IMG/VR virus record: IMGVR_UViG_2534681774_000020
Coordinates: 1-11,326 of that record
Length of the DNA: 11,326 nucleotides
Reading direction: 5' to 3' (one strand)
Origin: a virus
Lineage: Duplodnaviria; Heunggongvirae; Uroviricota; Caudoviricetes
Positions 1-11,326 of this stretch are shown in pieces. Both the position numbers and the translations under genes were made by a program. The notes under the pieces are model-generated. The model was given only the letters and a program-made list of their open reading frames with translations. It did not search any database and was not told the DNA's origin. Position 1 is the stretch's first letter; the number at the start of each line of letters is the position of its first letter.

Positions 1-445
1 CTTCAAAGAAGCGCTGTTCTTCTTCAAGATCACCTACGATTTGAGAAAAAACCCTATTTTTAAGGCTTTTCTTTATGATTTTGTCGTATTTTTTTAGCAA
101 TTGTTCACGTGTAAATGTACGTGTTGTTGTAGCGCTTTGCACAACGACATGCGTGCTTTGATTGGTGTCCTCAATGATGAATGGGATCGGAGAATATACA
201 GACTCAACAATGTTCGACGCTTTGCCGTCGGCATCGCGGCACATGTCAACGAAGGCTTTCCATTCAGCAAGACATTTTTCAGCTTCTTCTAATATGTTTT
301 GGTCATGCGTTAATGCAACATGGCGGAATTCCTCGCCAGCATAACTGGTATCATGGAAAACAGAGTTTGCGACCACCAGCTCTTTCCACCGTTCAGCGGT
401 TTGCAGGAACCGTTTGTACTCTTTCTCGATCGACTTCTTACTCAT
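1..445 (-). CDS. Partial CDS running off the window start (at least 148 aa in window, C-terminus missing); hypothetical protein, divergent from dre. N-terminus MSKKSIEKEYKRFLQTAERWKELVVANSVFHDTSYAGEEF...
   Basis: Manual translation of the minus strand from ATG (rc of cat at 443-445) is stop-free to position 1 with balanced composition. AGGA lies just upstream of the ATG. Absent from the ORF track, presumably because no in-window stop. Function not recognised. Confidence 0.6.
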   Translation of the reverse strand, partial: MSKKSIEKEYKRFLQTAERWKELVVANSVFHDTSYAGEEFRHVALTHDQNILEEAEKCLAEWKAFVDMCRDADGKASNIVESVYSPIPFIIEDTNQSTHVVVQSATTTRTFTREQLLKKYDKIIKKSLKNRVFSQIVGDLEEEQRFFE

Positions 446-654
446 TATTCCTACTCGATTTAGTTTTCTAACATAAAATTACTATGACAAATTTATGTCG
501 AATAACAGAGTGAGTAAAGGATCGAACTGTGATTTTTTGTCATCAATTTTAGAAAACCAACCGTAGAAACCACACTTCGCAAATTAAAGACCATGAAGGC
601 AACGTGTTACTGGTCATCATCAATCTATGATGGATTAAAAAAATCGGCATTTTA

Positions 655-686
655 TAACTTTAAATAATTGGCATTATTTAAAGTTA
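655..686. other. rox: rox-type site-specific recombination target: 14-bp perfect inverted arms around a 4-bp core, TAACTTTAAATAAT-TGGC-ATTATTTAAAGTTA
   Basis: Perfect inverted repeat seen directly. It is the reverse complement of the rox site of phage D6 as I recall it (TAACTTTAAATAATGCCAATTATTTAAAGTTA). Lies about 150 bp upstream of the Cre-family recombinase gene, the same arrangement as loxP and cre in P1. Confidence 0.85.
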
Positions 687-695
687 GGCTATAAT
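668..695 (+). promoter_or_regulatory. Putative sigma70 promoter for dre: -35 TTGGCA (668-673) inside the rox site, 16-bp spacer, -10 TATAAT (690-695)
   Basis: Hexamers read directly; perfect -10 and 5/6 -35 with 16-bp spacing. The overlap with the recombination site suggests autoregulation. Not experimentally anchored. Confidence 0.35.
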
Positions 696-838
696 CATGG
701 GTAGATGATCAGTATTGACATCACTCAAAATACGCGCCTCGAATCAAAGGCTTGAATCTTGAAAATTAACTTATAGCTACCCTGTCATTTTTATATTTTT
801 CGCGTAGCGTCATCTGTATATAGAGGTTAAATAGTTTC

Positions 839-1867
839 ATGAGTGAATTAATTATCTCTGGCAGTTCCGGTGGTTTTCTGCGCAACATTGGCAAAGAGTA
901 CCAGGAAGCCGCAGAAAACTTTATGCGGTTCATGAATGACCAGGGAGCTTATGCGCCGAATACTCTGCGCGACCTCCGTTTGGTGTTTCATTCCTGGGCG
1001 CGCTGGTGTCACGCTCGCCAGCTTGCCTGGTTTCCGATCTCACCAGAAATGGCCCGCGAGTATTTTCTTCAGCTGCATGATGCCGATCTGGCTTCGACCA
1101 CCATTGATAAGCACTACGCCATGCTGAACATGCTGCTTTCGCATTGTGGCCTTCCGCCACTTTCGGATGATAAAAGTGTTTCTCTGGCTATGCGGCGCAT
1201 CCGGCGCGAAGCGGCAACTGAAAAAGGCGAACGAACAGGCCAGGCTATACCGCTGCGGTGGGACGATCTGAAACTGCTCGACGTCCTGTTGTCCAGGTCA
1301 GAACGGCTGGTGGACCTGCGCAACCGGGCTTTTCTCTTTGTTGCATACAATACGCTGATGCGTATGTCGGAAATCTCGCGTATTCGTGTAGGAGATCTGG
1401 ACCAAACAGGTGACACTGTCACGCTACATATTTCACACACGAAGACAATAACGACCGCCGCCGGGCTTGATAAGGTGCTTTCCCGTCGCACTACCGCTGT
1501 GCTGAATGACTGGCTGGATGTTTCCGGGCTTCGCGAACATCCTGACGCAGTGCTGTTCCCGCCGATACACCGTAGCAATAAGGCCAGGATCACGACAACG
1601 CCCCTTACTGCACCTGCAATGGAGAAAATATTCAGCGACGCCTGGGTGTTGCTGAATAAAAGAGATGCTACGCCAAACAAAGGAAGATACCGGACGTGGA
1701 CCGGGCATAGTGCACGCGTCGGGGCCGCTATTGATATGGCTGAAAAGCAGGTGTCTATGGTGGAGATCATGCAGGAAGGAACCTGGAAGAAACCGGAAAC
1801 ACTTATGCGGTATCTTCGCCGTGGCGGCGTGTCTGTGGGGGCTAATAGCCGCCTGATGGATTCGTAA
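839..1867 (+). CDS. dre: Cre-family tyrosine site-specific recombinase, recognised as Dre (D6-type, rox-specific)
   Basis: 342-aa ORF whose N-terminus (MSELIISGSSGGFLRNIGKEYQEAAENFMRFMNDQGAYAPNTL) matches Dre as I remember it. Alignable to P1 Cre along its length (e.g. LAFLFVAYNTLMRMSEISRIRVGDL vs Cre LAFLGIAYNTLLRIAEIARIRVKDI; WTGHSARVGAAIDMA vs WSGHSARVGAARDMA). Exact rox site upstream. Confidence 0.95.
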   Translation: MSELIISGSSGGFLRNIGKEYQEAAENFMRFMNDQGAYAPNTLRDLRLVFHSWARWCHARQLAWFPISPEMAREYFLQLHDADLASTTIDKHYAMLNMLLSHCGLPPLSDDKSVSLAMRRIRREAATEKGERTGQAIPLRWDDLKLLDVLLSRSERLVDLRNRAFLFVAYNTLMRMSEISRIRVGDLDQTGDTVTLHISHTKTITTAAGLDKVLSRRTTAVLNDWLDVSGLREHPDAVLFPPIHRSNKARITTTPLTAPAMEKIFSDAWVLLNKRDATPNKGRYRTWTGHSARVGAAIDMAEKQVSMVEIMQEGTWKKPETLMRYLRRGGVSVGANSRLMDS

Positions 1868-1940
1868 ATTAAATTTCTAACACATCTTTTTAGATTAACG
1901 CCTTTGCTGTAAAGTACCCTCGCCTATTTAGGAGGGTGCT

Positions 1941-2285
1941 TTGCAGAGTAAAATCACGGAATCAAGACGCTTCAAGGTGGATGGTTACACCGTAACCTTC
2001 GCCGCTGGTGTTAAGAACAGTCATGCTGTCGTTGTGTTCGGCATCATGACCGGGCTTGAGGCCGTCCCTGTGTTTACCCTCGAAAAAAACTGGCGAAATC
2101 TGGAGGAAGCAGAAAGCTACGTCCGGAAAGTAACCATCATTGCCGCCGAAAAACTCCTGGCCCACTATCAGGAAAATTATCGCACTATGGTCGAGAAGAT
2201 TAATCTCGCTTTCACTCGCCCCACTACCGGCTTTATTGCACCGGATACTAATGCAGGTCGCTATCCTGCAAGGGGGCGTCGGTGA
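1941..2285 (+). CDS. Hypothetical protein, 114 aa, TTG start
   Basis: ORF with a strong Shine-Dalgarno GGAGGG at 1931-1936, 4 nt before the TTG start. First gene of the operon after dre. No recognisable motifs. Confidence 0.55.
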   Translation: MQSKITESRRFKVDGYTVTFAAGVKNSHAVVVFGIMTGLEAVPVFTLEKNWRNLEEAESYVRKVTIIAAEKLLAHYQENYRTMVEKINLAFTRPTTGFIAPDTNAGRYPARGRR

Positions 2286-2758
2286 AGACTTATTACACAT
2301 CTCTGAATTGTTACCCGTCTTCCTATCCAGAATTGTCCGGGAAGCTGTTAGCTCTATTAGCTAAAGCACCTACGGAATGGTTTAAGCCAGTCATTATCAA
2401 TCCACACTTCCTGGATTACGGATCTGTTCGCACTCGTAACGAACTCAAAAACCTACTGGCGCATGGATTCATTCGACACCGTGCCGGGAAAGGCTATCAG
2501 TTAGCGATTGCGCCAGAAGAGGCCGTGCGGCTATTCGCATATCGTGACAGCCAGACAAAAGCTCGGGTAATAGCTCAAATACTTCATAACGGCAGCACCT
2601 ATGCCCGCCAGTTTGGTGGCGACACGTCGCAGTTCTTGCGGGCGGTGCGATCGCTGGAGGAGCAAGGAGTTATTGAAAGTTCCTGTCTTCCTGTTCCTAC
2701 CGTTCCACATATCAAACGTCGGGTTTACACCTTCACGCAGAGAGCTAAAAAACAATGA
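2282..2758 (+). CDS. Hypothetical protein, 158 aa, possible winged-helix DNA-binding fold (inference)
   Basis: GTG start overlaps the upstream stop (GTGA at 2282-2285), with AGGGGG Shine-Dalgarno 5 nt upstream. The C-terminal segment ...SQFLRAVRSLEEQGVIES resembles a recognition helix plus wing. Function inferred only. Confidence 0.6.
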   Translation: MKTYYTSLNCYPSSYPELSGKLLALLAKAPTEWFKPVIINPHFLDYGSVRTRNELKNLLAHGFIRHRAGKGYQLAIAPEEAVRLFAYRDSQTKARVIAQILHNGSTYARQFGGDTSQFLRAVRSLEEQGVIESSCLPVPTVPHIKRRVYTFTQRAKKQ

Positions 2759-3249
2759 TTTACGTAAAAGTGAAACGCCTACATCCGGCAGCAAAACTTC
2801 CAGCTTATGCCACCTCCGGATCGGCGGCGATGGATTTTGAGGCTGTTGAAATAAAACCATGTGTCGATAGCAATGGTGCAATTTCCTCAAGCTGGTGGGT
2901 GTACACCGGACTGGCTATGGAGATCCCGCCCGGCTGGTGTCTAAAACTCTATCCGCGTTCCGGATTGGGCTGCAAAAAACATACTCGCCTGGCTAACTGC
3001 GTAGGAATTATCGACTCCGATTATCGCGGTGAAATCATGGCAAAACTGATTACTGATCCCGGCGGGGAAGGCGTTTGTCTCAAGCCTGGAATGGCTGTCA
3101 TGCAAGGAATTTTTGAGCGTGTTGAACAAGTCTCACTAGTCGAGGTTGAGGAACTCAACGAAACGGAACGTGGTGCCGGTGGCTTTGGTAGCACATCGGA
3201 AGACCGCGTTGAAATCAAGCGTACACCGCTTCAGTACGCAAAGTTTTAA
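2755..3249 (+). CDS. dut: dUTP diphosphatase (trimeric dUTPase)
   Basis: ATGA start/stop overlap with the upstream gene. Canonical dUTPase motifs are present: PRSGLG (motif II), GIIDSDYRGE (motif III), RGAGGFGSTS (motif V), and an AAMDFEA motif-I-like segment. Confidence 0.9.
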   Translation: MIYVKVKRLHPAAKLPAYATSGSAAMDFEAVEIKPCVDSNGAISSSWWVYTGLAMEIPPGWCLKLYPRSGLGCKKHTRLANCVGIIDSDYRGEIMAKLITDPGGEGVCLKPGMAVMQGIFERVEQVSLVEVEELNETERGAGGFGSTSEDRVEIKRTPLQYAKF

Positions 3250-3263
3250 GTAGAGGAAGGATT

Positions 3264-3926
3264 ATGGTCAGCACTTTTCAGGTGTTCCCCAAATACAAAT
3301 GCCACAGCATCATTCGGGCATCGAAAATCAAAGATATTGTTATTGTCGGCAAAGCTTATGCGCCCATTTTTGGCAGTATCGAAGTCGTTGAGCCAAAAGG
3401 AATGACGCTTCGTGTTGATGGTGTGTTCTTGGAAAAATTCCGACCGCAAATAGGAGGATATCTCGTCACTGCTGAAAATGGCTATCTGGTCTATGTGCCA
3501 GAGAAAGCATTTGAAAAATGCTATAGCCGGGTTAACGACGCCTCCGAAAATGGGGTATCGCTCAGCATTGAAGGTCACAATGGGGTGACATTCATTACAG
3601 CCAGGGACGTAACTATTTCTGCTGGCGGTATCGCTACTCTACAAGAAGAAATCGACCTTGAAGCAGCCGACTTTTCTGACGCGCTGATGTGGCTGAAGGA
3701 TGGCAAGAAAGTTGCCCGGCGCGGGTGGAACGGCGAAAACCAATTCTGCTGGCTGGTTCCTGAAGGACAGTACCCGGCACGAATGGAAGCCATTAAGGGA
3801 TATTTCCCCGGCGATCTCGTTCCGTATGGTGCTTATTTCGCCTTAAAAAATGCACAAGGTGTAGTTGTTCCGTGGTTGCCTTCTGTAGGCGACTTACTGG
3901 CATGTGACTGGTTTGTAGTGGAGTGA
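3264..3926 (+). CDS. Two-domain protein, 220 aa: unknown N-terminal domain (about 135 aa) fused to a C-terminal DUF2829 (Tad2-like) domain
   Basis: Strong Shine-Dalgarno (GAGGAAGGA) before the ATG. The C-terminal 85 aa (ALMWLKDGKKVARRGWNGENQFCWLVPEG...VPWLPSVGDLLACDWFVVE) carries the DUF2829 hallmarks as I recall them (GKK..RRGWNG, VPW, DLLA.DW..VE). Domain assignment is from memory. Confidence 0.75.
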   Translation: MVSTFQVFPKYKCHSIIRASKIKDIVIVGKAYAPIFGSIEVVEPKGMTLRVDGVFLEKFRPQIGGYLVTAENGYLVYVPEKAFEKCYSRVNDASENGVSLSIEGHNGVTFITARDVTISAGGIATLQEEIDLEAADFSDALMWLKDGKKVARRGWNGENQFCWLVPEGQYPARMEAIKGYFPGDLVPYGAYFALKNAQGVVVPWLPSVGDLLACDWFVVE

Positions 3927-3932
3927 TTTAAC

Positions 3933-4733
3933 GTGGAAAATACTAAAGCAATTCAATACCGCTTGCGTAATGGCCTGCTGGTGGCTGTTAACGCCGACAT
4001 GTCACTGCCGTTTGACACGATTGAACGTACTATCATGACGTATCTCGGCTTTAATGAAGAGCTGAATGAAGAGCATGGCGTAGCTATATGGAGTGATGCA
4101 GAAAGCGGCGTTCATCGTTACATCACCGCCAGGGGCAAAGACTACTCTCTGGAAGAACTGTTTACCCTTGCACAGTCTTTCGAATGTGTAGCATTAGACA
4201 TGTTTAATGATCCTGCTATAGCGCAACGACTTATACGCGAGCTTGGGCTATCCGTTACACCAATTATCTTTAAGAATGGCAGCCTGACTGGCACATGGCG
4301 CGTAGAACGCATCTCAAACTACCTTCCATATAACCGACAGTTAAATGGAGTAATCTCCGGCGTTAATCAGCCCGTAGCGTGTGAAAATGTAAACCTGGTT
4401 GCCGCTGTTTTGGCAACCGCATGTCGTGTTATCGGTTTGGCTAAACAGGCATTTATTCATTTCCCAAATGGTGCAGAAGGTAGCGCAGAGATTATCGCGT
4501 GTGATTTCGAATTTACCTGGATGCTACGCGAATATCTGGACCAAACAGTATTCCGTGCCGAAGAACTGGATATGTATATCACGTCAACGATTCCAGACGA
4601 TGTGCGAGCTGAAGCAATCGCTACAGCCAGGGCGAAATGCCGTGCGGCGATTGCAGAGCAGGCCAAAGAAGAACCGTCCGATGAAGCCGTGGCTGATGTT
4701 GAAGCAGAGGTAGCGGAGGATGCTGACGCCTAA
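3933..4733 (+). CDS. Hypothetical protein, 266 aa, with a poly-acidic C-terminal tail (EEPSDEAVADVEAEVAEDADA)
   Basis: GTG start 7 nt after the upstream stop, with GGAG 9 nt upstream. Last gene of the plus-strand cargo operon, followed by an intrinsic terminator. No recognisable catalytic motifs. Confidence 0.7.
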   Translation: MENTKAIQYRLRNGLLVAVNADMSLPFDTIERTIMTYLGFNEELNEEHGVAIWSDAESGVHRYITARGKDYSLEELFTLAQSFECVALDMFNDPAIAQRLIRELGLSVTPIIFKNGSLTGTWRVERISNYLPYNRQLNGVISGVNQPVACENVNLVAAVLATACRVIGLAKQAFIHFPNGAEGSAEIIACDFEFTWMLREYLDQTVFRAEELDMYITSTIPDDVRAEAIATARAKCRAAIAEQAKEEPSDEAVADVEAEVAEDADA

Positions 4734-4788
4734 AAACATCACCGAATTAGCTGGCTGACAGCAGAAAAAATCATTGAGTGATAGTAGG

Positions 4789-4818
4789 AAGCCCGCCTGG
4801 TTGAGCGGGCTTCTTTTC
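4789..4818. terminator. Rho-independent terminator (8-bp GC-rich stem AAGCCCGC/GCGGGCTT, 8-nt loop, then CTTTTC) between the convergent cargo operon and doc
   Basis: Hairpin and T-tract read directly. Positioned 56 bp after the stop of the 266-aa gene and overlapping the doc stop codon. The T-run is short, so it is probably stronger for the plus-strand transcript. Confidence 0.55.
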
Positions 4819-5197
4819 AAATATTGGAACCAAATAATTCACGTAGTTTTTCCGCTACTGAAGATACGGGGATTTCACCAGTTGCGGCCCCCACCGCAAG
4901 TTCCACCAGCACGGGAGAATCATATACCTGTATACCGTTACGGCGTAGAAATAGCAGCGCACTGTTTAGCGCGGTACGCTTATTGGCATCATTGAATATA
5001 TGCCCTCTCGCAGTAGCCACCAGGTAGGTTGCGGAGACTTCGAAAAGGTCGGTAATCTCTTCGTACACAACTCTGGCCTGGACTCTCCCGATAATGGCCT
5101 CTGCCCTGCCCGGATCTGACATGCCAGGCAGGCCGCCGTAGCGGTTTATATTCGCATCATGAAGCGCAATAAGTTCTTCCGGTGATATATGCCTCAT
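4817..5197 (-). CDS. doc: Doc toxin (death on curing; Fic-family protein) of the P1-type phd-doc addiction module
   Basis: 126-aa ORF that matches P1 Doc as I recall it ([22 protein letters not shown]...). Its ATG overlaps the phd stop by 1 nt (TAATG), as in P1. Confidence 0.95.
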
Positions 5198-5418
5198 TAT
5201 CGGTTAACCAGTTCCTTGTTGGTGGAGTCCAGGGTGTCAAACAGGGATGCAAATTCAGCATCCAGCGCCGCTTTTTTGTAGGCTTCGAAAGTAGCCTTGC
5301 TGACAATTACTGCTGGCTCACGGCCTCTGCGGGTGATTTCAACCTCTTCCCCGGCTTCAACATTGTTGAGCACTTCAGAAAGGTTGCCACGCGCGGTACG
5401 GAAGTTAATGGATTGCAT
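5197..5418 (-). CDS. phd: Phd antitoxin (prevent host death), 73 aa
   Basis: Sequence [73 protein letters not shown] matches P1 Phd from memory. The true start is the ATG at 5416-5418 (GAGG 6 nt upstream), not the GTG used in the ORF track. Confidence 0.95.
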
Positions 5419-5426
5419 AAACACCT

Positions 5427-5450
5427 CGTGTACTCGTTATGTGTACACAA
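5427..5450. promoter_or_regulatory. phd-doc operator: two Phd-binding palindromes (GTGTACTC imperfect at 5428-5435, TGTGTACACA perfect at 5440-5449) just upstream of phd
   Basis: Palindromes read directly. They match the GTGTACAC-type subsites described for the P1 phd-doc autoregulated promoter (established knowledge, recalled from the literature). Confidence 0.6.
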
Positions 5451-5490
5451 CTATAAACTTCACAGGCATAAAGCACCAGCACTTTGCAGC

Positions 5491-5880
5491 TTAAATAACC
5501 GGACAATCATCAAATTCCCCACTTCGGGCATCATTGATGACATGAGTGATCACACCAAAAACAGCATTACTGCCCGTGTATCCATCGTCATCTACTGGTA
5601 ACGCCTCTTTCTTCCCGGTGCTTAAATCCTCCAGGTGCTGGCGCGGATACTTCCTGTATCTCTTTATGCGATATTCACCCTCCATAGCGCACACAAGCAG
5701 AGAACCCTCAACCGGAGTAAGCGAGGAATCAACCACCAGCAAAGCACCCTGCAATATTCCCTCACGGTGATGGCTATCAGCTGCCCGCATGAAGTAGGTT
5801 GCTGATGGATGCCTGATTAGTTGCTGATCAAGAGAAATTCGGCTTTCAACATAATCCGCCGCAGGAGAAGGGAAGCCCAT
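5491..5880 (-). CDS. humD: HumD, UmuD'-like translesion-synthesis accessory protein (S24 peptidase fold, pre-processed form)
   Basis: 129-aa ORF beginning [12 protein letters not shown]...HPSATYF, which aligns with E. coli UmuD from the Cys24-Gly25 cleavage site onward (UmuD: [29 protein letters not shown]). Same humD-phd-doc neighbourhood as in P1. Confidence 0.9.
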   Translation of the reverse strand: [129 protein letters not shown]

Positions 5881-5898
5881 AGCGTTTTACCTCAATGA

Positions 5899-5918
5899 TA
5901 CTGTTTATTCATACAGCA
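5899..5918. promoter_or_regulatory. LexA (SOS) box TACTGTTTATTCATACAGCA upstream of humD
   Basis: CTGT-N8-ACAG architecture, 16/20 match to the consensus TACTGTATATATATACAGTA. Lies 19-38 bp upstream of the humD start codon. Confidence 0.6.
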
Positions 5919-6003
5919 TACATTGAAAAGGCATAGTTTGTGAAAGCGGGGTTTGTAGGCGCGCCACGCTGGGGGCTAATCACATTTCTCCCCCATCTTG
6001 CCG

Positions 6004-6255
6004 TTATTTTTTTGGTGCATCCTCGTTCTGATACACCGGATCGCTCCCTTTTGGCAACTGGAGGCTTAACTGCCGGTAGTGCCGTAGCCGTTCCATGAAA
6101 TAGGCGCGCAGGTTTTCCGGTTGCTCACGGGCCACCTGCTCTGCAATCACAGGTATATTCAGCCGTTCTTTGTAAGCAACGCCGCTGGCGGCAAGGTCTA
6201 CGTTCACCTTGTCTCGCTCTTCCTGGCTTTTAGCTGCTATATTTCGATCTGACAC
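6004..6255 (-). CDS. Hypothetical protein, 83 aa (GTG start), function unknown
   Basis: ORF with a GGAGG Shine-Dalgarno 6 nt upstream of the GTG start. Hydrophilic, protein-like composition. Sits immediately upstream of the humD promoter region. Not recognised. Confidence 0.55.
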
Positions 6256-6287
6256 AAGAAACCTCCAGGAGTTAGTGGATCAGGCAC

Positions 6288-6638
6288 ATGCACAATAACG
6301 TTCTCAATGTTAGCCGTTCAATTCAGACAATCAGAGACTGCACCAGTGTGGTGGCATCAATCCCATTGCGAAACAGCATAGACGAACTGCAAATTCGTGT
6401 ATTGAATCCGAATCAGGCTAATAAGCAATTGCGCTTTATTTTGACGCTGAAAAGTGAAACAGAGGGGATAAAGCACAGCGTAAAAGTGTTTTCTGAGGCC
6501 ATTCTGCTTAATGGGAAGCTCCGGCATCTGATAAGGCCAGAACGTCAATATCCTGACGTCCTGGCGCGTGAAAAAGACCTTCTTTCTGAAGTTCAGGATA
6601 GGGTGATCGATTTCGTCAAATGCTATCCCCTGCATTGA
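6288..6638 (+). CDS. Hypothetical protein, 116 aa; coding strand uncertain
   Basis: The plus-strand ORF has a purine-rich sense strand and a balanced charged composition. The antisense ORF 6357-6635 is Phe/Tyr/Gln-rich and looks like a shadow frame. Weak Shine-Dalgarno; overlaps the 3' end of the convergent gene at 6623-6907 by 16 bp. Confidence 0.4.
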   Translation: MHNNVLNVSRSIQTIRDCTSVVASIPLRNSIDELQIRVLNPNQANKQLRFILTLKSETEGIKHSVKVFSEAILLNGKLRHLIRPERQYPDVLAREKDLLSEVQDRVIDFVKCYPLH

Positions 6639-6907
6639 GGGCAGGTGTTCCCTTCCGCAAAGTAGGGAAAACTGCTATCAAGTTCATCACACCATCTGCG
6701 ATGGTCGTAGCACCAAAACGCCTCCCACGGTGCACGGAAATACTTCATCCACCAGGACACTCGATCAGGTATATCTGCTGGTGGCAGTTCTTCTGGCAAT
6801 AATTTGCCTGATAATTCCCTTTCCGCCCGCGACAGCATTTTTTTGAGGCTCGCGTTCTCTTTTTCAAGCTCATCTACGCGCACCTGTAATTCAGCTTTCG
6901 TTGGCAT
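6623..6907 (-). CDS. Hypothetical protein, about 94 aa: N-terminal coiled-coil-like segment and C-terminal Cys/His cluster (CYDHRRWC...CPQC)
   Basis: Internal ATG at 6905-6907 preceded by GAGG (5 nt); overlaps the end of the 538-aa gene by 17 nt, consistent with coupling. The longer ORF-track version (from 6988) would lie entirely inside the upstream gene in another frame. Confidence 0.5.
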   Translation of the reverse strand: MPTKAELQVRVDELEKENASLKKMLSRAERELSGKLLPEELPPADIPDRVSWWMKYFRAPWEAFWCYDHRRWCDELDSSFPYFAEGNTCPQCRG

Positions 6908-8507
6908 GGTCCGCCTCATGCTTTTCAGCCACCAGCGGCAATAAAGCCCTGGCCATCTTATGAACCAATAGTGCATCAATAATGCCAAGCGTATGCCCCG
7001 GCTTAATGTTTAATGCCGCCTCAAGGTGACACCTTTCCAGGCCACTTTTCTCGGCTTGTTTATGATGATCTGGTGTAATAACGTCGCCCAAAACACGGCT
7101 AATTCTTTCTCGTAATTGCTGGGTGCCAGCACACTTGATCGCTGTATCGTGGAGACGGTTAACCAGTTCGCGATAAACATGCGGCTTAATTCGGATACGT
7201 TCACCGGTGACGCCCTTTCCTGGTGCTGGCACCGAACTATCCGGAATATCCGGATAGTTGCCTGCCAGTCTACGCAAAACGGCCTTAACAGCCTCAATAC
7301 GGTCATCATCGCAATTTTCCAGCGTATCTATGCGATCGAGCATGATGATGGCGTTATCAATATCAGGATTGCCGGTCCACTCATTACCGCGATTGGATTC
7401 GGCAGCCTGGTTGCCGCGTACTGGTTGATTATCGGCTTTACCCAGTCTGTCGTTGCTGCATGAATGCCCTTCCAGCAAGGCCAATGCTTGTCGCATGAAA
7501 TACGCAATATGTTTGCCGTGGTAATCGTCTTCATCGATGTGAAAAGCGATACTGCGGATGTATTCAATTGCGTTTTCAATGGCCTCCGGCGTTATCGGCG
7601 CTGACATATTTTGATTTTGGAGTGCCAAGACGCGACTGGCATCCTCAACGTTCTTCACTGCATCTGCGCAGTAGTTATAGCGATTGCATTCCACTAACTT
7701 CTGCTTGAGATTTTCAATTGCTTGCGCGACATCAGCCTGTATTTCCGGAACTGGCGGAACGGCTGTCTGCTGCTCTCGAACGTCATTAGTCGCTATCGGT
7801 TCTGCTGCCAACTGACTGGCATATTTGTTAATGGTAACGATAAGCTCTTGCTCGGCCTCATCCAGACAATCACCGATACCTCGCCTGTCACCGTCAAAAT
7901 CATCGAAATCGGCACGAATCTTGGCAACCTTCTGGATTGCGGACAACACCTCACTAGGAATTACCGGATAGTTGGTTGACGTTTCCGCGATTTCCCGAAA
8001 ATTATTGGTTGACGAATTCTTGTTTTCCCGAAAGTTTCCGGACTGAAGCATGGCGGCGCGGCAGGCGTTCCATATTTCGGCAGCAATATCGCGCTCGCTA
8101 TCGGTTAATTTGTACGTGGAAACATAGCCAGAGAGCATTTCTACGTTTTCCGGAGTTGCTTCTTCCGGCACTACCGGCGCTGGCGGGGCGATGCGTCCAA
8201 GCAACTTATTTACCTCTTTCGCCATCGCGTCATATTTATCTAAATGGCGATTAGCTTCTAAGCAGACTCGGCGCATCTGATCTGAGTTAACTCGTTTAAC
8301 TGGATCTGCTCCCAGTGATGCCAGTGCAATTCGTGCCAGCTCACGCACAACTTCAGGGGGCGCGTGACGGTCATTCAGGTCATCCCACAGACGTAGCATG
8401 TTATCGCTATCAGGGTTAACATCCTCATTAGTTCCGGTCAGCGCACTAATAACCTCATCGGCTGCTTCAATAATTTTCTGCGCCTGTTCTCTGGTAATAG
8501 TGGTCAT
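6891..8507 (-). CDS. Large acidic hypothetical protein, 538 aa, no recognisable catalytic motifs
   Basis: Long clean ORF starting 10 nt after the stop of the 87-aa gene, with GGAG 8 nt before the ATG. Asp/Glu-rich; no Walker A, DEAD/helicase, nuclease or reverse transcriptase motifs seen by eye. Confidence 0.8.
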   Translation of the reverse strand: MTTITREQAQKIIEAADEVISALTGTNEDVNPDSDNMLRLWDDLNDRHAPPEVVRELARIALASLGADPVKRVNSDQMRRVCLEANRHLDKYDAMAKEVNKLLGRIAPPAPVVPEEATPENVEMLSGYVSTYKLTDSERDIAAEIWNACRAAMLQSGNFRENKNSSTNNFREIAETSTNYPVIPSEVLSAIQKVAKIRADFDDFDGDRRGIGDCLDEAEQELIVTINKYASQLAAEPIATNDVREQQTAVPPVPEIQADVAQAIENLKQKLVECNRYNYCADAVKNVEDASRVLALQNQNMSAPITPEAIENAIEYIRSIAFHIDEDDYHGKHIAYFMRQALALLEGHSCSNDRLGKADNQPVRGNQAAESNRGNEWTGNPDIDNAIIMLDRIDTLENCDDDRIEAVKAVLRRLAGNYPDIPDSSVPAPGKGVTGERIRIKPHVYRELVNRLHDTAIKCAGTQQLRERISRVLGDVITPDHHKQAEKSGLERCHLEAALNIKPGHTLGIIDALLVHKMARALLPLVAEKHEADHANES

Positions 8508-8517
8508 GTGTTACTCC

Positions 8518-8781
8518 TTAACCCGCAGTGCTTTCAACTGATGAGGGGAACAAAATCCTTTCATCAAATCCGGCATTCATATCATGGACAGCAACACACC
8601 AATCCATCGACGAACGATTATCAAGAGCCTCCATGATTTCATCCATGCGGCGCAGGTCATACAGGTAAATGCTTTTATCGCCAATGGTGTAAAAACCAAT
8701 TTTTTTCGGTGATGGGCAGCGATCAAGAACGTCCTGTAATTCGTTCAACCATGCCTGTTCTTTTTTTGTCAAAGTTGCCAT
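8518..8781 (-). CDS. Hypothetical protein, 87 aa (MATLTKKEQAWLNELQDVLDRCPSPKK...)
   Basis: ATG at 8779-8781 preceded by AAGGA (7 nt spacer). The ORF-track version extends to a GTG at 8916 with no Shine-Dalgarno and would overlap a better-supported small ORF in another frame. Confidence 0.55.
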   Translation of the reverse strand: MATLTKKEQAWLNELQDVLDRCPSPKKIGFYTIGDKSIYLYDLRRMDEIMEALDNRSSMDWCVAVHDMNAGFDERILFPSSVESTAG

Positions 8782-8795
8782 ATCAGTTTTCCTTA

Positions 8796-8975
8796 TTAAT
8801 GCGACAGTGGTTTTTCCAGCGGTTTTTGCGCCGCGCTGGGCTTTTTGCAAAAACCACAATCCATCATCCCGTAATATTTCATCAACCCCATCCGTCGGTT
8901 GCTGAGTCTCACCCACTGCCAGACGCCAGGAGCGTTTCTACGAACTAACAGAATCTTTGCTTTACGGTTTTTCAT
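8796..8975 (-). CDS. Unannotated small basic protein, 59 aa (MKNRKAKILLVRRNAPGVWQWVRLSNRRMGLMKYYGMMDCGFCKKPSAAQKPLEKPLSH); paralog of the ORF immediately upstream
   Basis: Manual translation. Its ATG overlaps the stop of the upstream 59-aa ORF (ATGA at 8972-8975). It stops 14 nt before the Shine-Dalgarno/ATG of the 87-aa gene. N-terminus is conserved with its neighbour. One residue below the ORF-track cutoff. Confidence 0.35.
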   Translation of the reverse strand: MKNRKAKILLVRRNAPGVWQWVRLSNRRMGLMKYYGMMDCGFCKKPSAAQKPLEKPLSH

Positions 8976-9151
8976 CTTACTGCGTACCCTTTCTTCCGCC
9001 TGTTCTGTGACGCAGTAGGCTTACGCTTTGCGGCAAAAGCCACCTGACCAAATAATGGATGGATTACCGCTATCTTATGGTTGCTAATAACCAGCTCCAC
9101 CACACGCACAGGCCGCTGTAAAAAAAGTCGTTTTGCCTTACGGTTTTTCAT
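8972..9151 (-). CDS. Unannotated small basic protein, 59 aa (MKNRKAKRLFLQRPVRVVELVISNHKIAVIHPLFGQVAFAAKRKPTASQNRRKKGYAVR)
   Basis: Manual translation. AGGAGA Shine-Dalgarno 8 nt upstream of the ATG. Shares the MKNRKAK-[RI]-L-[FL]-[LV]-[QR]-R N-terminus with the downstream paralog; the nucleotide repeat TTACGGTTTTTCATC marks both starts (8961-8975 and 9139-9153). Confidence 0.35.
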   Translation of the reverse strand: MKNRKAKRLFLQRPVRVVELVISNHKIAVIHPLFGQVAFAAKRKPTASQNRRKKGYAVR

Positions 9152-9243
9152 CGCTTTGCTCTCCTGCGTCTCTTTGCTGCTCGTCGTGCCGCTGCAATAC
9201 CGGTATGGCGGCGCTTTGGTGCCGGGATGATGTTGTCAGCCAT
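9148..9243 (-). CDS. Possible arginine-rich micro-ORF, 31 aa (MADNIIPAPKRRHTGIAAARRAAKRRRRAKR)
   Basis: Its stop overlaps the start of the next ORF (ATGA at 9148-9151). No convincing Shine-Dalgarno. Could instead be untranslated leader sequence. Confidence 0.2.
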   Translation of the reverse strand: MADNIIPAPKRRHTGIAAARRAAKRRRRAKR

Positions 9244-9323
9244 CAGGACATGTGGCTTTGCAATTAGCGCAGAAGCCCAAAAACGAGTCGGGTACGGTAA
9301 CAAGCCGATACATGCCACACGCA

Positions 9324-9812
9324 TTACTCACCTCCTTTGATGCGAATGCCTGTTGCAATGCTGTTTATGATGCTGTCAGTGCATGGGGTAGAAAGCTGGG
9401 CATCTCCAGCAATTTTCATGACCTCAACATCTGCATATCGAATACCGAGGTGTATCAGACCGGCTATGCCTGACTTAAGCCGAGCATTTTCCATAAATAG
9501 AACTTTTGCCCGCTGTTTTTCTGCTTCAAGCTCAACGCGCAGCTTCCCTACCGTTAGCGCAATATCCTCGTTCTCCTGATCGCGGCTTTTGATGTATTGC
9601 AGGTTTCTTTCCCGTTCATCCAGCAGTGCCAGCACGGTTTCTGGTCCGGTCAGAAATTTGAAGGCGTTGAGCGCATCAATATCCACACCGTAATCTTTAA
9701 GTTCCTGTTCACTTAACAAGTCATCATCAGCTGGCAACATTAACAGGCGTTCCATTGCTGGAATTGCACGTTCCGCCACCTCACGCAGTGCCTGGTAATT
9801 AATTTCGCTCAC
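9324..9812 (-). CDS. Hypothetical protein, 162 aa, reminiscent of Ead/Ea22-like early-region proteins of lambdoid phages
   Basis: GTG start overlapping the upstream stop (GTGA at 9809-9812). N-terminus MSEINYQALREVAERA... and an ALLDERE coiled-coil segment resemble Ea22-like proteins from memory. Low-confidence family call. Confidence 0.65.
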   Translation of the reverse strand: MSEINYQALREVAERAIPAMERLLMLPADDDLLSEQELKDYGVDIDALNAFKFLTGPETVLALLDERERNLQYIKSRDQENEDIALTVGKLRVELEAEKQRAKVLFMENARLKSGIAGLIHLGIRYADVEVMKIAGDAQLSTPCTDSIINSIATGIRIKGGE

Positions 9813-10315
9813 TGGTTGCCTCCTTTGCGAAGCTGGGCAGCAAAGTCAACTAACCACTCAGTCATTTCAACCTTCCCTACCAGGTCTGAACCAGGGTACA
9901 TACAGCAATCACTCTGCGCCGCTTTGAAATCCTTATACTCATATTCTTGGGCCACCAGATTTTTTGCAGCTTCTATAGCAGCATCCACCCCCTGCGCCCG
10001 GACTTCAGCCAGGAAAGCATCAGTGGTTGGCGTTTCAGGTATCTGTCTCCTCATCCGTTCTATTGCATGATTGAACCCGAAGTCTTCCGCGAGAGATACG
10101 TCATCCATATTGTCATTGTCATCTTCAATATCCCGTGATTCTGGAATTGCAGACTTTATTCCCGCATTCTCCGCTGCCAGCGCCGCGCACTTGGCCTCAA
10201 GAGCGGCAACCACTTCCTGATGGTCTTTGTACTTAACGTATGAGCCGGAGATGTCATCACCTTCGGTGTTTAGCCATGCGTCATTGCAATTCACTGCGTA
10301 GGTTCTGATGCTCAT
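9809..10315 (-). CDS. Hypothetical protein, 168 aa (MSIRTYAVNCNDAWLNTEGDD...), first gene of the coupled minus-strand operon
   Basis: ATG at 10313-10315 preceded by GGGAGAG (7 nt spacer). The ORF-track extension to 10372 reads through into the IS21-family end and lacks a Shine-Dalgarno. Confidence 0.7.
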   Translation of the reverse strand: MSIRTYAVNCNDAWLNTEGDDISGSYVKYKDHQEVVAALEAKCAALAAENAGIKSAIPESRDIEDDNDNMDDVSLAEDFGFNHAIERMRRQIPETPTTDAFLAEVRAQGVDAAIEAAKNLVAQEYEYKDFKAAQSDCCMYPGSDLVGKVEMTEWLVDFAAQLRKGGNQ

Positions 10316-10384
10316 GTTGATGCTCTCCCGCCCCTGACAGACGCCAGGCCAGTCAATAAAGTATCCGCACAATGCCTACCCTCA

Positions 10385-11326
<942 letters not shown>

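Follow-up and report, generated by a model that had tools for sequence, protein, structure and literature searches.

Is the close, convergent arrangement of a Cre-family recombinase gene, dre, and a humD-phd-doc cluster the mark of a rearranged replicon, or is it the normal organisation of a phage-plasmid lineage? The question was raised by positions 655-5880 of a stretch of viral DNA of 11,326 nucleotides (nt), here called the window, from IMG/VR virus record IMGVR_UViG_2534681774_000020 (Caudoviricetes). An original prediction, based on the sequence and on the gene order of phage P1, had read this arrangement as that of a rearranged or mosaic phage-plasmid, or of a plasmid with captured P1-type modules, and not as that of a canonical P1 or D6 genome. 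The comparisons presented here indicate that the window is very probably a segment of a phage-plasmid of the D6 lineage, a relative of P1 with Dre/rox instead of Cre/lox, in which the convergence of dre with doc-phd-humD was inherited and is not a rearrangement specific to this replicon. The observation itself was confirmed, but the arrangement is ordinary and already known, because it is contained in the deposited annotation and in papers citing the D6 genome paper. The genome of D6 (GenBank MF356679.1) was reportedly described by Gilcrease and Casjens in 2018.

The layout of the window was as first described. From the stop of dre (1867) to that of doc (4817) the distance was 2,950 nt, in agreement with the predicted separation of about 3 kb between convergent genes, and doc-phd-humD was located on the opposite strand after an operon led by dre. 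The gene upstream of rox was indeed divergent, and was identified as a D6-type prophage repressor gene, c1. Its 5' part (first 148 codons) occupied positions 2-445 on the minus strand, with the gene continuing past the left window edge; the C1 fragment was identical to D6 C1 (AAV84948.1) at 147/148 amino acids (aa; 99%), and the position and strand of c1 were those found in D6 and in plasmid pEC213_2. The 32-bp Dre recombination site rox (TAACTTTAAATAATTGGCATTATTTAAAGTTA, 655-686), composed of 14-bp inverted arms and the 4-bp spacer TGGC, matched the misc_recomb feature 'rox' of AY753669 (4909-4940) with no mismatch and had the same orientation relative to dre. The dre gene (839-1867, plus strand) encodes a Cre-family tyrosine recombinase (Pfam Phage_integrase, 5.3e-17) identical to D6 Dre over 342/342 residues, and only 41% identical to P1 Cre. 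With Dre, rox beside dre, a divergent D6-type c1 and the D6 gene order, the window has the features of the D6 lineage. The close convergent layout is present because the DNA derives from a D6-type phage-plasmid, where this layout is normal.

The window was compared with D6 and with P1 using BLASTN alignments and annotation maps, which stand in for a whole-replicon dot-plot of the source. In D6 (MF356679.1/NC_050154.1; immC region AY753669), c1 on the minus strand is followed by rox, then by dre-orf117-orf116-dut-orf114-orf113 on the plus strand and by pdcA-like-doc-phd-orf109-humD-hot on the minus strand. The genes lpa, pacA and pacB (plus strand) are located to the left of c1, and past hot are orf106, a pmgU-like gene, Ea22-type genes, pdcB and ppp (mostly minus strand), followed by ref (plus strand). 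The window aligned with D6 in five colinear blocks over 671-7758, with nucleotide identities of 91.7-98.2%. The claim that the element is rearranged and is neither a canonical P1 nor a canonical D6 genome was therefore right for P1 and wrong for D6, as the D6 reference has the same order and strands.

Two complete plasmids resembled the window more closely in gene content. In NZ_CP142945.1, a complete circular Escherichia coli plasmid, positions 655-5880 were found as one ungapped piece (98.6% identity), and in pEC213_2 (NZ_CP061103.1, E. coli) positions 1-7603 were found in one piece (98.1%). The gene set of pEC213_2 was identical to that of the window, down to the 220-aa Tad2-like gene; on this plasmid c1 has lpa-pacA-pacB on its left, and ref is found further along to the right. 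Plasmids of the NZ_CP142945.1 and pEC213_2 type represent the variant seen in the window, with the 220-aa Tad2-like gene and full-length hot, and without the pdcA-like gene and orf109. They differ from it, as mosaics, in the pmgU-like and Ea22-like genes to the right of about 7.6 kb, where they also lack the IS21-family insertion of the window. In the close relatives of the window, D6-type genes for packaging, the virion, lytic replication and plasmid maintenance are found on the same replicon.

The D6 order was widespread. In PLSDB, rox-dre was present in 144 plasmids, and at least 80% of 655-5880 was found in one colinear place in 110 complete plasmids. The counter-case that the original prediction had itself named, D6-like references with the same order, thus proved to exist, both in MF356679.1 and in these 110 PLSDB plasmids. 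For IMG/VR, 35 Dre loci were taken with up to 10 kb per side, and the window proteins were placed on them by tblastn; 80 IMG/VR Cre loci, 59 with sufficient left flank and 60 with sufficient right flank, served as the control. Among the Dre loci with at least 6 kb of right flank, doc was downstream on the opposite strand in 21/29, at 2,861-4,036 nt past dre, and humD was downstream on the opposite strand in 25/29. No doc gene was found upstream of dre in any of the 25 Dre loci with at least 9 kb of left flank. The Cre loci showed the P1 order, with doc upstream and on the cre strand in 58/59, and doc was downstream of cre in 0/60, so that the D6 order was present in none. The orf117, orf116, dut, Tad2-like and isaA-like genes were found after cre in no locus of this control set. 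The order is thus fixed within each lineage, hybrids were absent among the IMG/VR Dre and Cre loci, and the window has the D6 order. Gene identities, order and strands could be read directly in these comparisons, as could their conservation throughout the lineage.

Conservation of the order extended to divergent lineages, which keep c1 (minus strand), a rox-like site, the recombinase-orf117-orf116-...-isaA-like set (plus strand), and then genes of the humD-hot set (minus strand). An opposite-strand humD was present in locus L042 (70% Dre identity), and hot in L044 and L045 (about 55%). The Escherichia fergusonii plasmid pEF-4 (NZ_CP137859.1), a Dre-type phage-plasmid more distant from the window, with a recombinase gene about 80% identical at the nucleotide level and an overall nucleotide identity of about 68-86%, has lpa-pacA-pacB, c1 (minus strand), the recombinase gene, two unknown genes, dut, a DUF2829 gene and the isaA-like gene (plus strand), followed by humD and hot (minus strand). 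It lacks phd-doc, and humD directly follows the isaA-like gene. A Dre search of genome contigs returned only recombinases of 41-47% identity, mostly from Pantoea, Mixta, Rahnella and Erwinia and partly plasmid-borne, and was uninformative on the D6-type order.

The P1 gene order given in the original prediction (humD-phd-doc-pdcA-pdcB-lpa-pacA-pacB-c1-coi-imcBA-lox-cre) was correct. In P1 (NC_005856), the map reads hot, lxr (minus strand), humD, phd, doc, pdcA, pdcB, lpa, pacA and pacB (plus strand), then c1, coi, imcB and imcA (minus strand), lox, and cra, cre, c8, ref and mat (plus strand). The order in SJ46 is the same as in P1: humD-phd-doc is found upstream of lox, is encoded on the cre strand, and has pdcA, pdcB, lpa, pacA, pacB, c1 and coi between it and the lox-cre region; in P1 the imcBA genes intervene as well. 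In both phages ref and mat follow cre, in P1 directly after c8. The P1-type phages P1, P7, SJ46 and RCS47 have humD, phd, doc, hot, a c1 divergent from the recombination site and an isaA homologue in common with the window. At the nucleotide level, P1 matched the window only in doc-phd-humD, in hot and over part of pmgU, and relative to the recombinase these segments run the other way round. For dre and the genes following it, there was no nucleotide match to P1. The window is not a canonical P1 phage (Punavirus), having no Cre/loxP, with rox in its place, and carrying humD-phd-doc downstream of dre on the opposite strand.

The difference between the two maps can be described as the displacement of one block. 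In P1, the block of ppp, pmgT/pmgU, hot, humD, phd, doc, pdcA and pdcB is located to the left of lpa; in D6 the block is inverted and located between dre and ref, with pmgM, pmgR, pmgS, then tRNA genes, and tciA/tciB still to the left of lpa. Relative to P1, the D6 lineage would thus have the ppp, pdcB, pmgU, hot, humD, phd, doc and pdcA block in inverted form on the other side of pac-c1-rox-dre, between dre and ref, and a five-gene operon (orf117, orf116, dut, Tad2-like and isaA-like) would intervene between dre and the inverted block. The direction of this historical rearrangement is inferred, and either the P1 or the D6 order may be ancestral. The description of this operon as non-P1 cargo holds in part: P1-type genomes contain homologues of its last two genes, side by side but at another map position. 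The Tad2-like/isaA-like pair, which directly follows dut in D6-type elements, is found at 42987-44336 in SJ46 (KU760857.1), about 25 kb from cre, where the gene adjoining isaA encodes a protein 81% identical to the window Tad2-like protein. In P1, isaA is located at 21746-22441, and an insertion interrupts the Tad2-like gene of RCS47.

Several observations weigh against the assignment of the window to the D6 lineage, or limit it. In D6, doc is followed by a pdcA-like gene and orf109 separates phd from humD, and the window has neither of these genes; the DUF2829 gene of D6 encodes 146 aa compared with 220 aa in the window, and the D6 hot is truncated (147 nt) compared with the full-length gene of 252 nt in the window. 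To the right of about 7.8 kb, no single relative matched the window well, and in the Ea22-like region there D6 differs from the window and has no insertion sequence (IS). The window ends in an insertion, an IS21-family element which starts at about 10385 and runs off the right edge at 11326, with istB at 10444-11226. Collections of phage, plasmid and E. coli genomes contained no match to the whole window, the best match covering 81% at 95.9% identity, and the rest of the source element could therefore differ from D6.

The alternative that best survives the comparisons concerns the cassette itself: a D6-type backbone in which humD-phd-doc was recently exchanged with P1-type phage-plasmids. It is compatible with the inherited D6 order, and we consider the chances of such a recent exchange to be about even. 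The humD allele was 97.4% identical at the nucleotide level to P1, 99.7% to SJ46 and 93.0% to D6, and phd was 99.5% identical to P1, 100% to SJ46 and 98.2% to D6, both thus being nearer to the P1/SJ46 alleles than to those of D6, while the backbone proteins of the P1 and D6 lineages are only 41-48% identical. The doc-phd-humD segment aligned with P1 as one unbroken piece of 1,108 bp, and in D6 it is interrupted by the inserted orf109. The presence of phd-doc was also patchy, as pEF-4 and five close Dre loci of IMG/VR (L016, L017, L030, L037 and L040) retained humD-hot without it, and the doc alleles among the Dre loci formed two classes, with about 89-90% and 96-100% aa identity to the window. 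However, doc was about 88% identical at the nucleotide level to P1, SJ46 and D6 alike (and 97.4% to pEC213_2), so none of the three can be the source of the entire cassette, and strong purifying selection on short genes could explain part of the similarity. The different histories of humD/phd and doc inside a 1.1-kb cassette suggest internal recombination.

In some Dre loci the isaA-like gene and doc were separated by about 1 kb of additional DNA; the junction was also noted at 13104-13154 in L009. As phd-doc is optional and extra DNA may be present at this junction, the spot behind the dre operon is variable. From these alleles and their distribution, the cassette was probably exchanged with P1-type elements at some point, which is consistent with published recombination among phage-plasmids. 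The mosaicism is real but lineage-wide, and the window replicon is not unusual for it.

Very much less probable is the reading of the original prediction, in which the layout arose by a recent rearrangement or mosaic event in this replicon, or in which an ordinary plasmid captured P1 modules. It would account for an order that differs from that of P1, for humD and phd alleles at 97-100% identity to P1/SJ46 beside a dre operon that has no nucleotide match to P1, and for the IS21-family element at the right end of the window. However, the same junctions were present in the D6 reference, in the 110 complete plasmids and in most IMG/VR Dre loci, and the absence of both a Cre locus with the D6 order and a Dre locus with the P1 order leaves no sign of recent reshuffling. 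A plasmid with captured modules was contradicted by the immunity gene c1 inside the window and by lpa, pacA and pacB, which are immediately to the left of c1 in pEC213_2, pEF-4 and D6; pac and lpa were adjacent in all of the close relatives examined. A chimeric contig, in which a fragment with dre was joined to a P1-type doc-phd-humD fragment, was raised only since no record matches the whole window, found no support and was rejected as highly improbable, because the junction is spanned by single-piece alignments to complete plasmids (655-5880 ungapped in a complete circular plasmid, and 1-7603 in pEC213_2).

With the window read as a D6-lineage segment, the layout has little discovery value, as it is the deposited organisation of D6 (MF356679.1) and of more than 100 sequenced D6-type plasmids. 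For annotation, elements with Dre/rox should be compared with D6 and not with P1, and by that standard the window is typical. The position of doc may also be used as a lineage marker in fragmentary assemblies: doc upstream of the recombinase gene and on its strand indicates a P1-type element, and doc on the other strand, about 3-4 kb past the recombinase gene, indicates a D6-type element.

By homology to P1, functions can be proposed for both sides of the junction. Dre acting on rox would cyclise incoming DNA and resolve plasmid multimers, as Cre does at lox. From the opposite side, humD would be transcribed from a LexA-controlled promoter, and phd-doc would form an autoregulated addiction module that kills plasmid-losing cells. 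We infer the transcription units, promoters and terminator described below from sequence features.

The operon after dre starts with homologues of D6 orf117 (1941-2285; phrog_1968, 8.4e-48) and orf116 (2282-2758; phrog_6669, 8.7e-98), both on the plus strand and in the same places as D6_117 and D6_116; the orf116 homologue overlaps each of its neighbours by 4 nt. These are followed on the same strand by dut (2755-3249), the counterpart of D6_115, which encodes a dUTP diphosphatase (NCBIfam NF001862, 2e-35, above cut-off; Pfam dUTPase, 1.7e-14), by the gene of a 220-aa Tad2-like (DUF2829) protein (3264-3926; Pfam PF11195, 2.1e-22), which is a longer form of D6 orf114, and by the final gene, an isaA-like homologue of D6 orf113 (3933-4733; phrog_2326, 1e-135). 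The isaA-like protein was 99% identical to its D6 counterpart, 47% to P1 IsaA and 48.5% to SJ46 IsaA. The orf117-like, orf116-like and isaA-like proteins had no Pfam or NCBIfam match, and a sequence search of the Protein Data Bank gave no match for them at E values up to 1. The genes after dre overlap or are 6-14 nt apart, with a 73-nt gap between dre and the first of them, and because of this tight spacing a single transcript is likely. A GC-rich hairpin followed by TTTT was detected by a terminator scan at 4788-4817 (plus strand), with an RNA fold of -19.8 kcal/mol (z = -3.3 versus shuffles). It sits between the convergent gene sets, its last base being the first base of the doc stop codon, and is likely to be the intrinsic terminator of the dre-led operon. 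The dre-led genes are probably co-transcribed up to this hairpin.

The Tad2-like protein scored 79.9 bits for PF11195 (cut-off 25), and its C-terminal 89 residues (132-220) matched the solved Tad2 anti-Thoeris chains 9eib and 8v3e with E values of about 1e-19. A weaker match to AcrIIA7 was also observed. The N-terminal domain of about 110 aa belongs to phrog_11049, a family of unassigned function, and is not in the D6 reference; window positions 3267-3603 have no counterpart in D6. The full-length form was found in pEC213_2 (99.8%) and in SJ46 (81% aa identity). The gene was considered as a possible new finding, but this was dropped, as the presence of Tad2 in D6-like phage-plasmids has already been reported in a 2025 preprint, with frequencies of 93% in D6-like and 56% in P1-like phage-plasmids (10.1101/2025.09.12.675607).

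In the convergent block, all genes are on the minus strand. The toxin gene doc (4817-5197; TIGR01550 DOC_P1, 6.7e-35, above cut-off) encodes a protein with 90% aa identity to P1 Doc, and the antitoxin gene phd (5197-5418; TIGR01552, 5.9e-13, above cut-off) has a stop codon overlapping the doc start, base 5197 being common to both. The phd start is likely to be the ATG at 5418 rather than the GTG at 5424 given by the open reading frame (ORF) finder. A predicted Fic/Doc-fold toxin, a preceding Phd and an overlapping stop and start qualify the pair as a putative phd-doc type II toxin-antitoxin module. The humD gene (5491-5880) encodes a UmuD'-like translesion polymerase subunit, assigned by the NCBIfam HumD equivalog NF051876 (2.6e-65; 218 bits versus a cut-off of 120) and identical to P1 HumD at 127/129 aa (98%). 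A perfect LexA box (CTGTATGAATAAACAG, 5901-5916, minus strand) was located 20 nt upstream of humD, which, together with the equivalog sequence, identifies the product as a UmuD'-like, putatively SOS-regulated HumD. This box was the sole CTGT-N8-ACAG in the window (0.10 expected by chance), it overlaps a promoter-like site at 5915-5944, and a LexA site is annotated at the corresponding position before humD in P1. Further upstream, hot (6004-6255; Pfam PF06440, 2.8e-33), which encodes a protein homologous to the theta subunit of DNA polymerase III, is in the same place as D6_107 and the theta gene of pEC213_2. Between hot and humD the window lacks lxr, which P1 has there.

A sigma-70 promoter-like site directed at dre was found at 668-695 (plus strand), with 11/12 matches to the consensus, a consensus match being its only basis. 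Its -35 element, TTGGCA, is located within rox (spacer and right arm), and its -10 element, TATAAT, begins 4 nt past rox. The TATAAT 3' of the rox-like site was retained, with changed flanking bases, down to 70% Dre identity (L009, L033, L037, L038 and L042), and was missing after the rox-like site in the lineage with 55% Dre identity (L044 and L045). This candidate promoter overlapping rox may allow Dre to regulate its own operon. Doubtful, in our estimation, is a broader idea in which rox-bound Dre would shut off its operon, dut and the Tad2-like gene included, thereby tying entry-phase genes to rox occupancy, and in which the convergent junction would in addition be a lineage-wide swap site where phd-doc is exchanged with P1-type elements.

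Variants of rox adjoined the genes of the Dre relatives, at about 150-190 nt upstream of the recombinase start in L037, L038, L042, L044 and L045 (locus positions of about 9815-9850) and at about 9000-9030 in L009. An A-to-G change at position 9 was observed in L037 and in pEF-4. The rox-like site of L038 had the spacer TGGA and an altered right arm, that of L042 (70% Dre identity) had the spacer TAGC, and in L044 and L045 (about 55% Dre identity) the rox-like sequence was TAACTTTATATAATGTCAGTTATATAAAGTTA. Judged by their sequences, these variant sites and their recombinases could be candidate orthogonal recombinase/site pairs.

Beyond hot, the minus strand of the window carries a pmgU-like gene, followed by several small genes and by Ea22-like genes. 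The pmgU-like ORF (6891-8507, minus strand, 538 aa) joins at least three PHROG families (phrog_60, 14306 and 21459), and its counterparts are shorter, at 360 aa in D6 and 317 aa in pEC213_2. The match to D6 and pEC213_2 was confined to the 3' part of this ORF (6891 to about 7600-7760), and the ORF is therefore a local mosaic. Parts of the region with small and Ea22-like genes (8500-10384) were 96-98% identical to lambdoid/Stx prophages and to Salmonella phage VSe13, which suggests that early genes may have been exchanged with integrated prophages. The Ea22-like gene at 9809-10372 seems to have lost its 5' end to the IS21-family element, whose IstB helper ATPase (10444-11226) showed 99.9% identity to copies of the IS100 type in records from Yersinia and E. 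coli.

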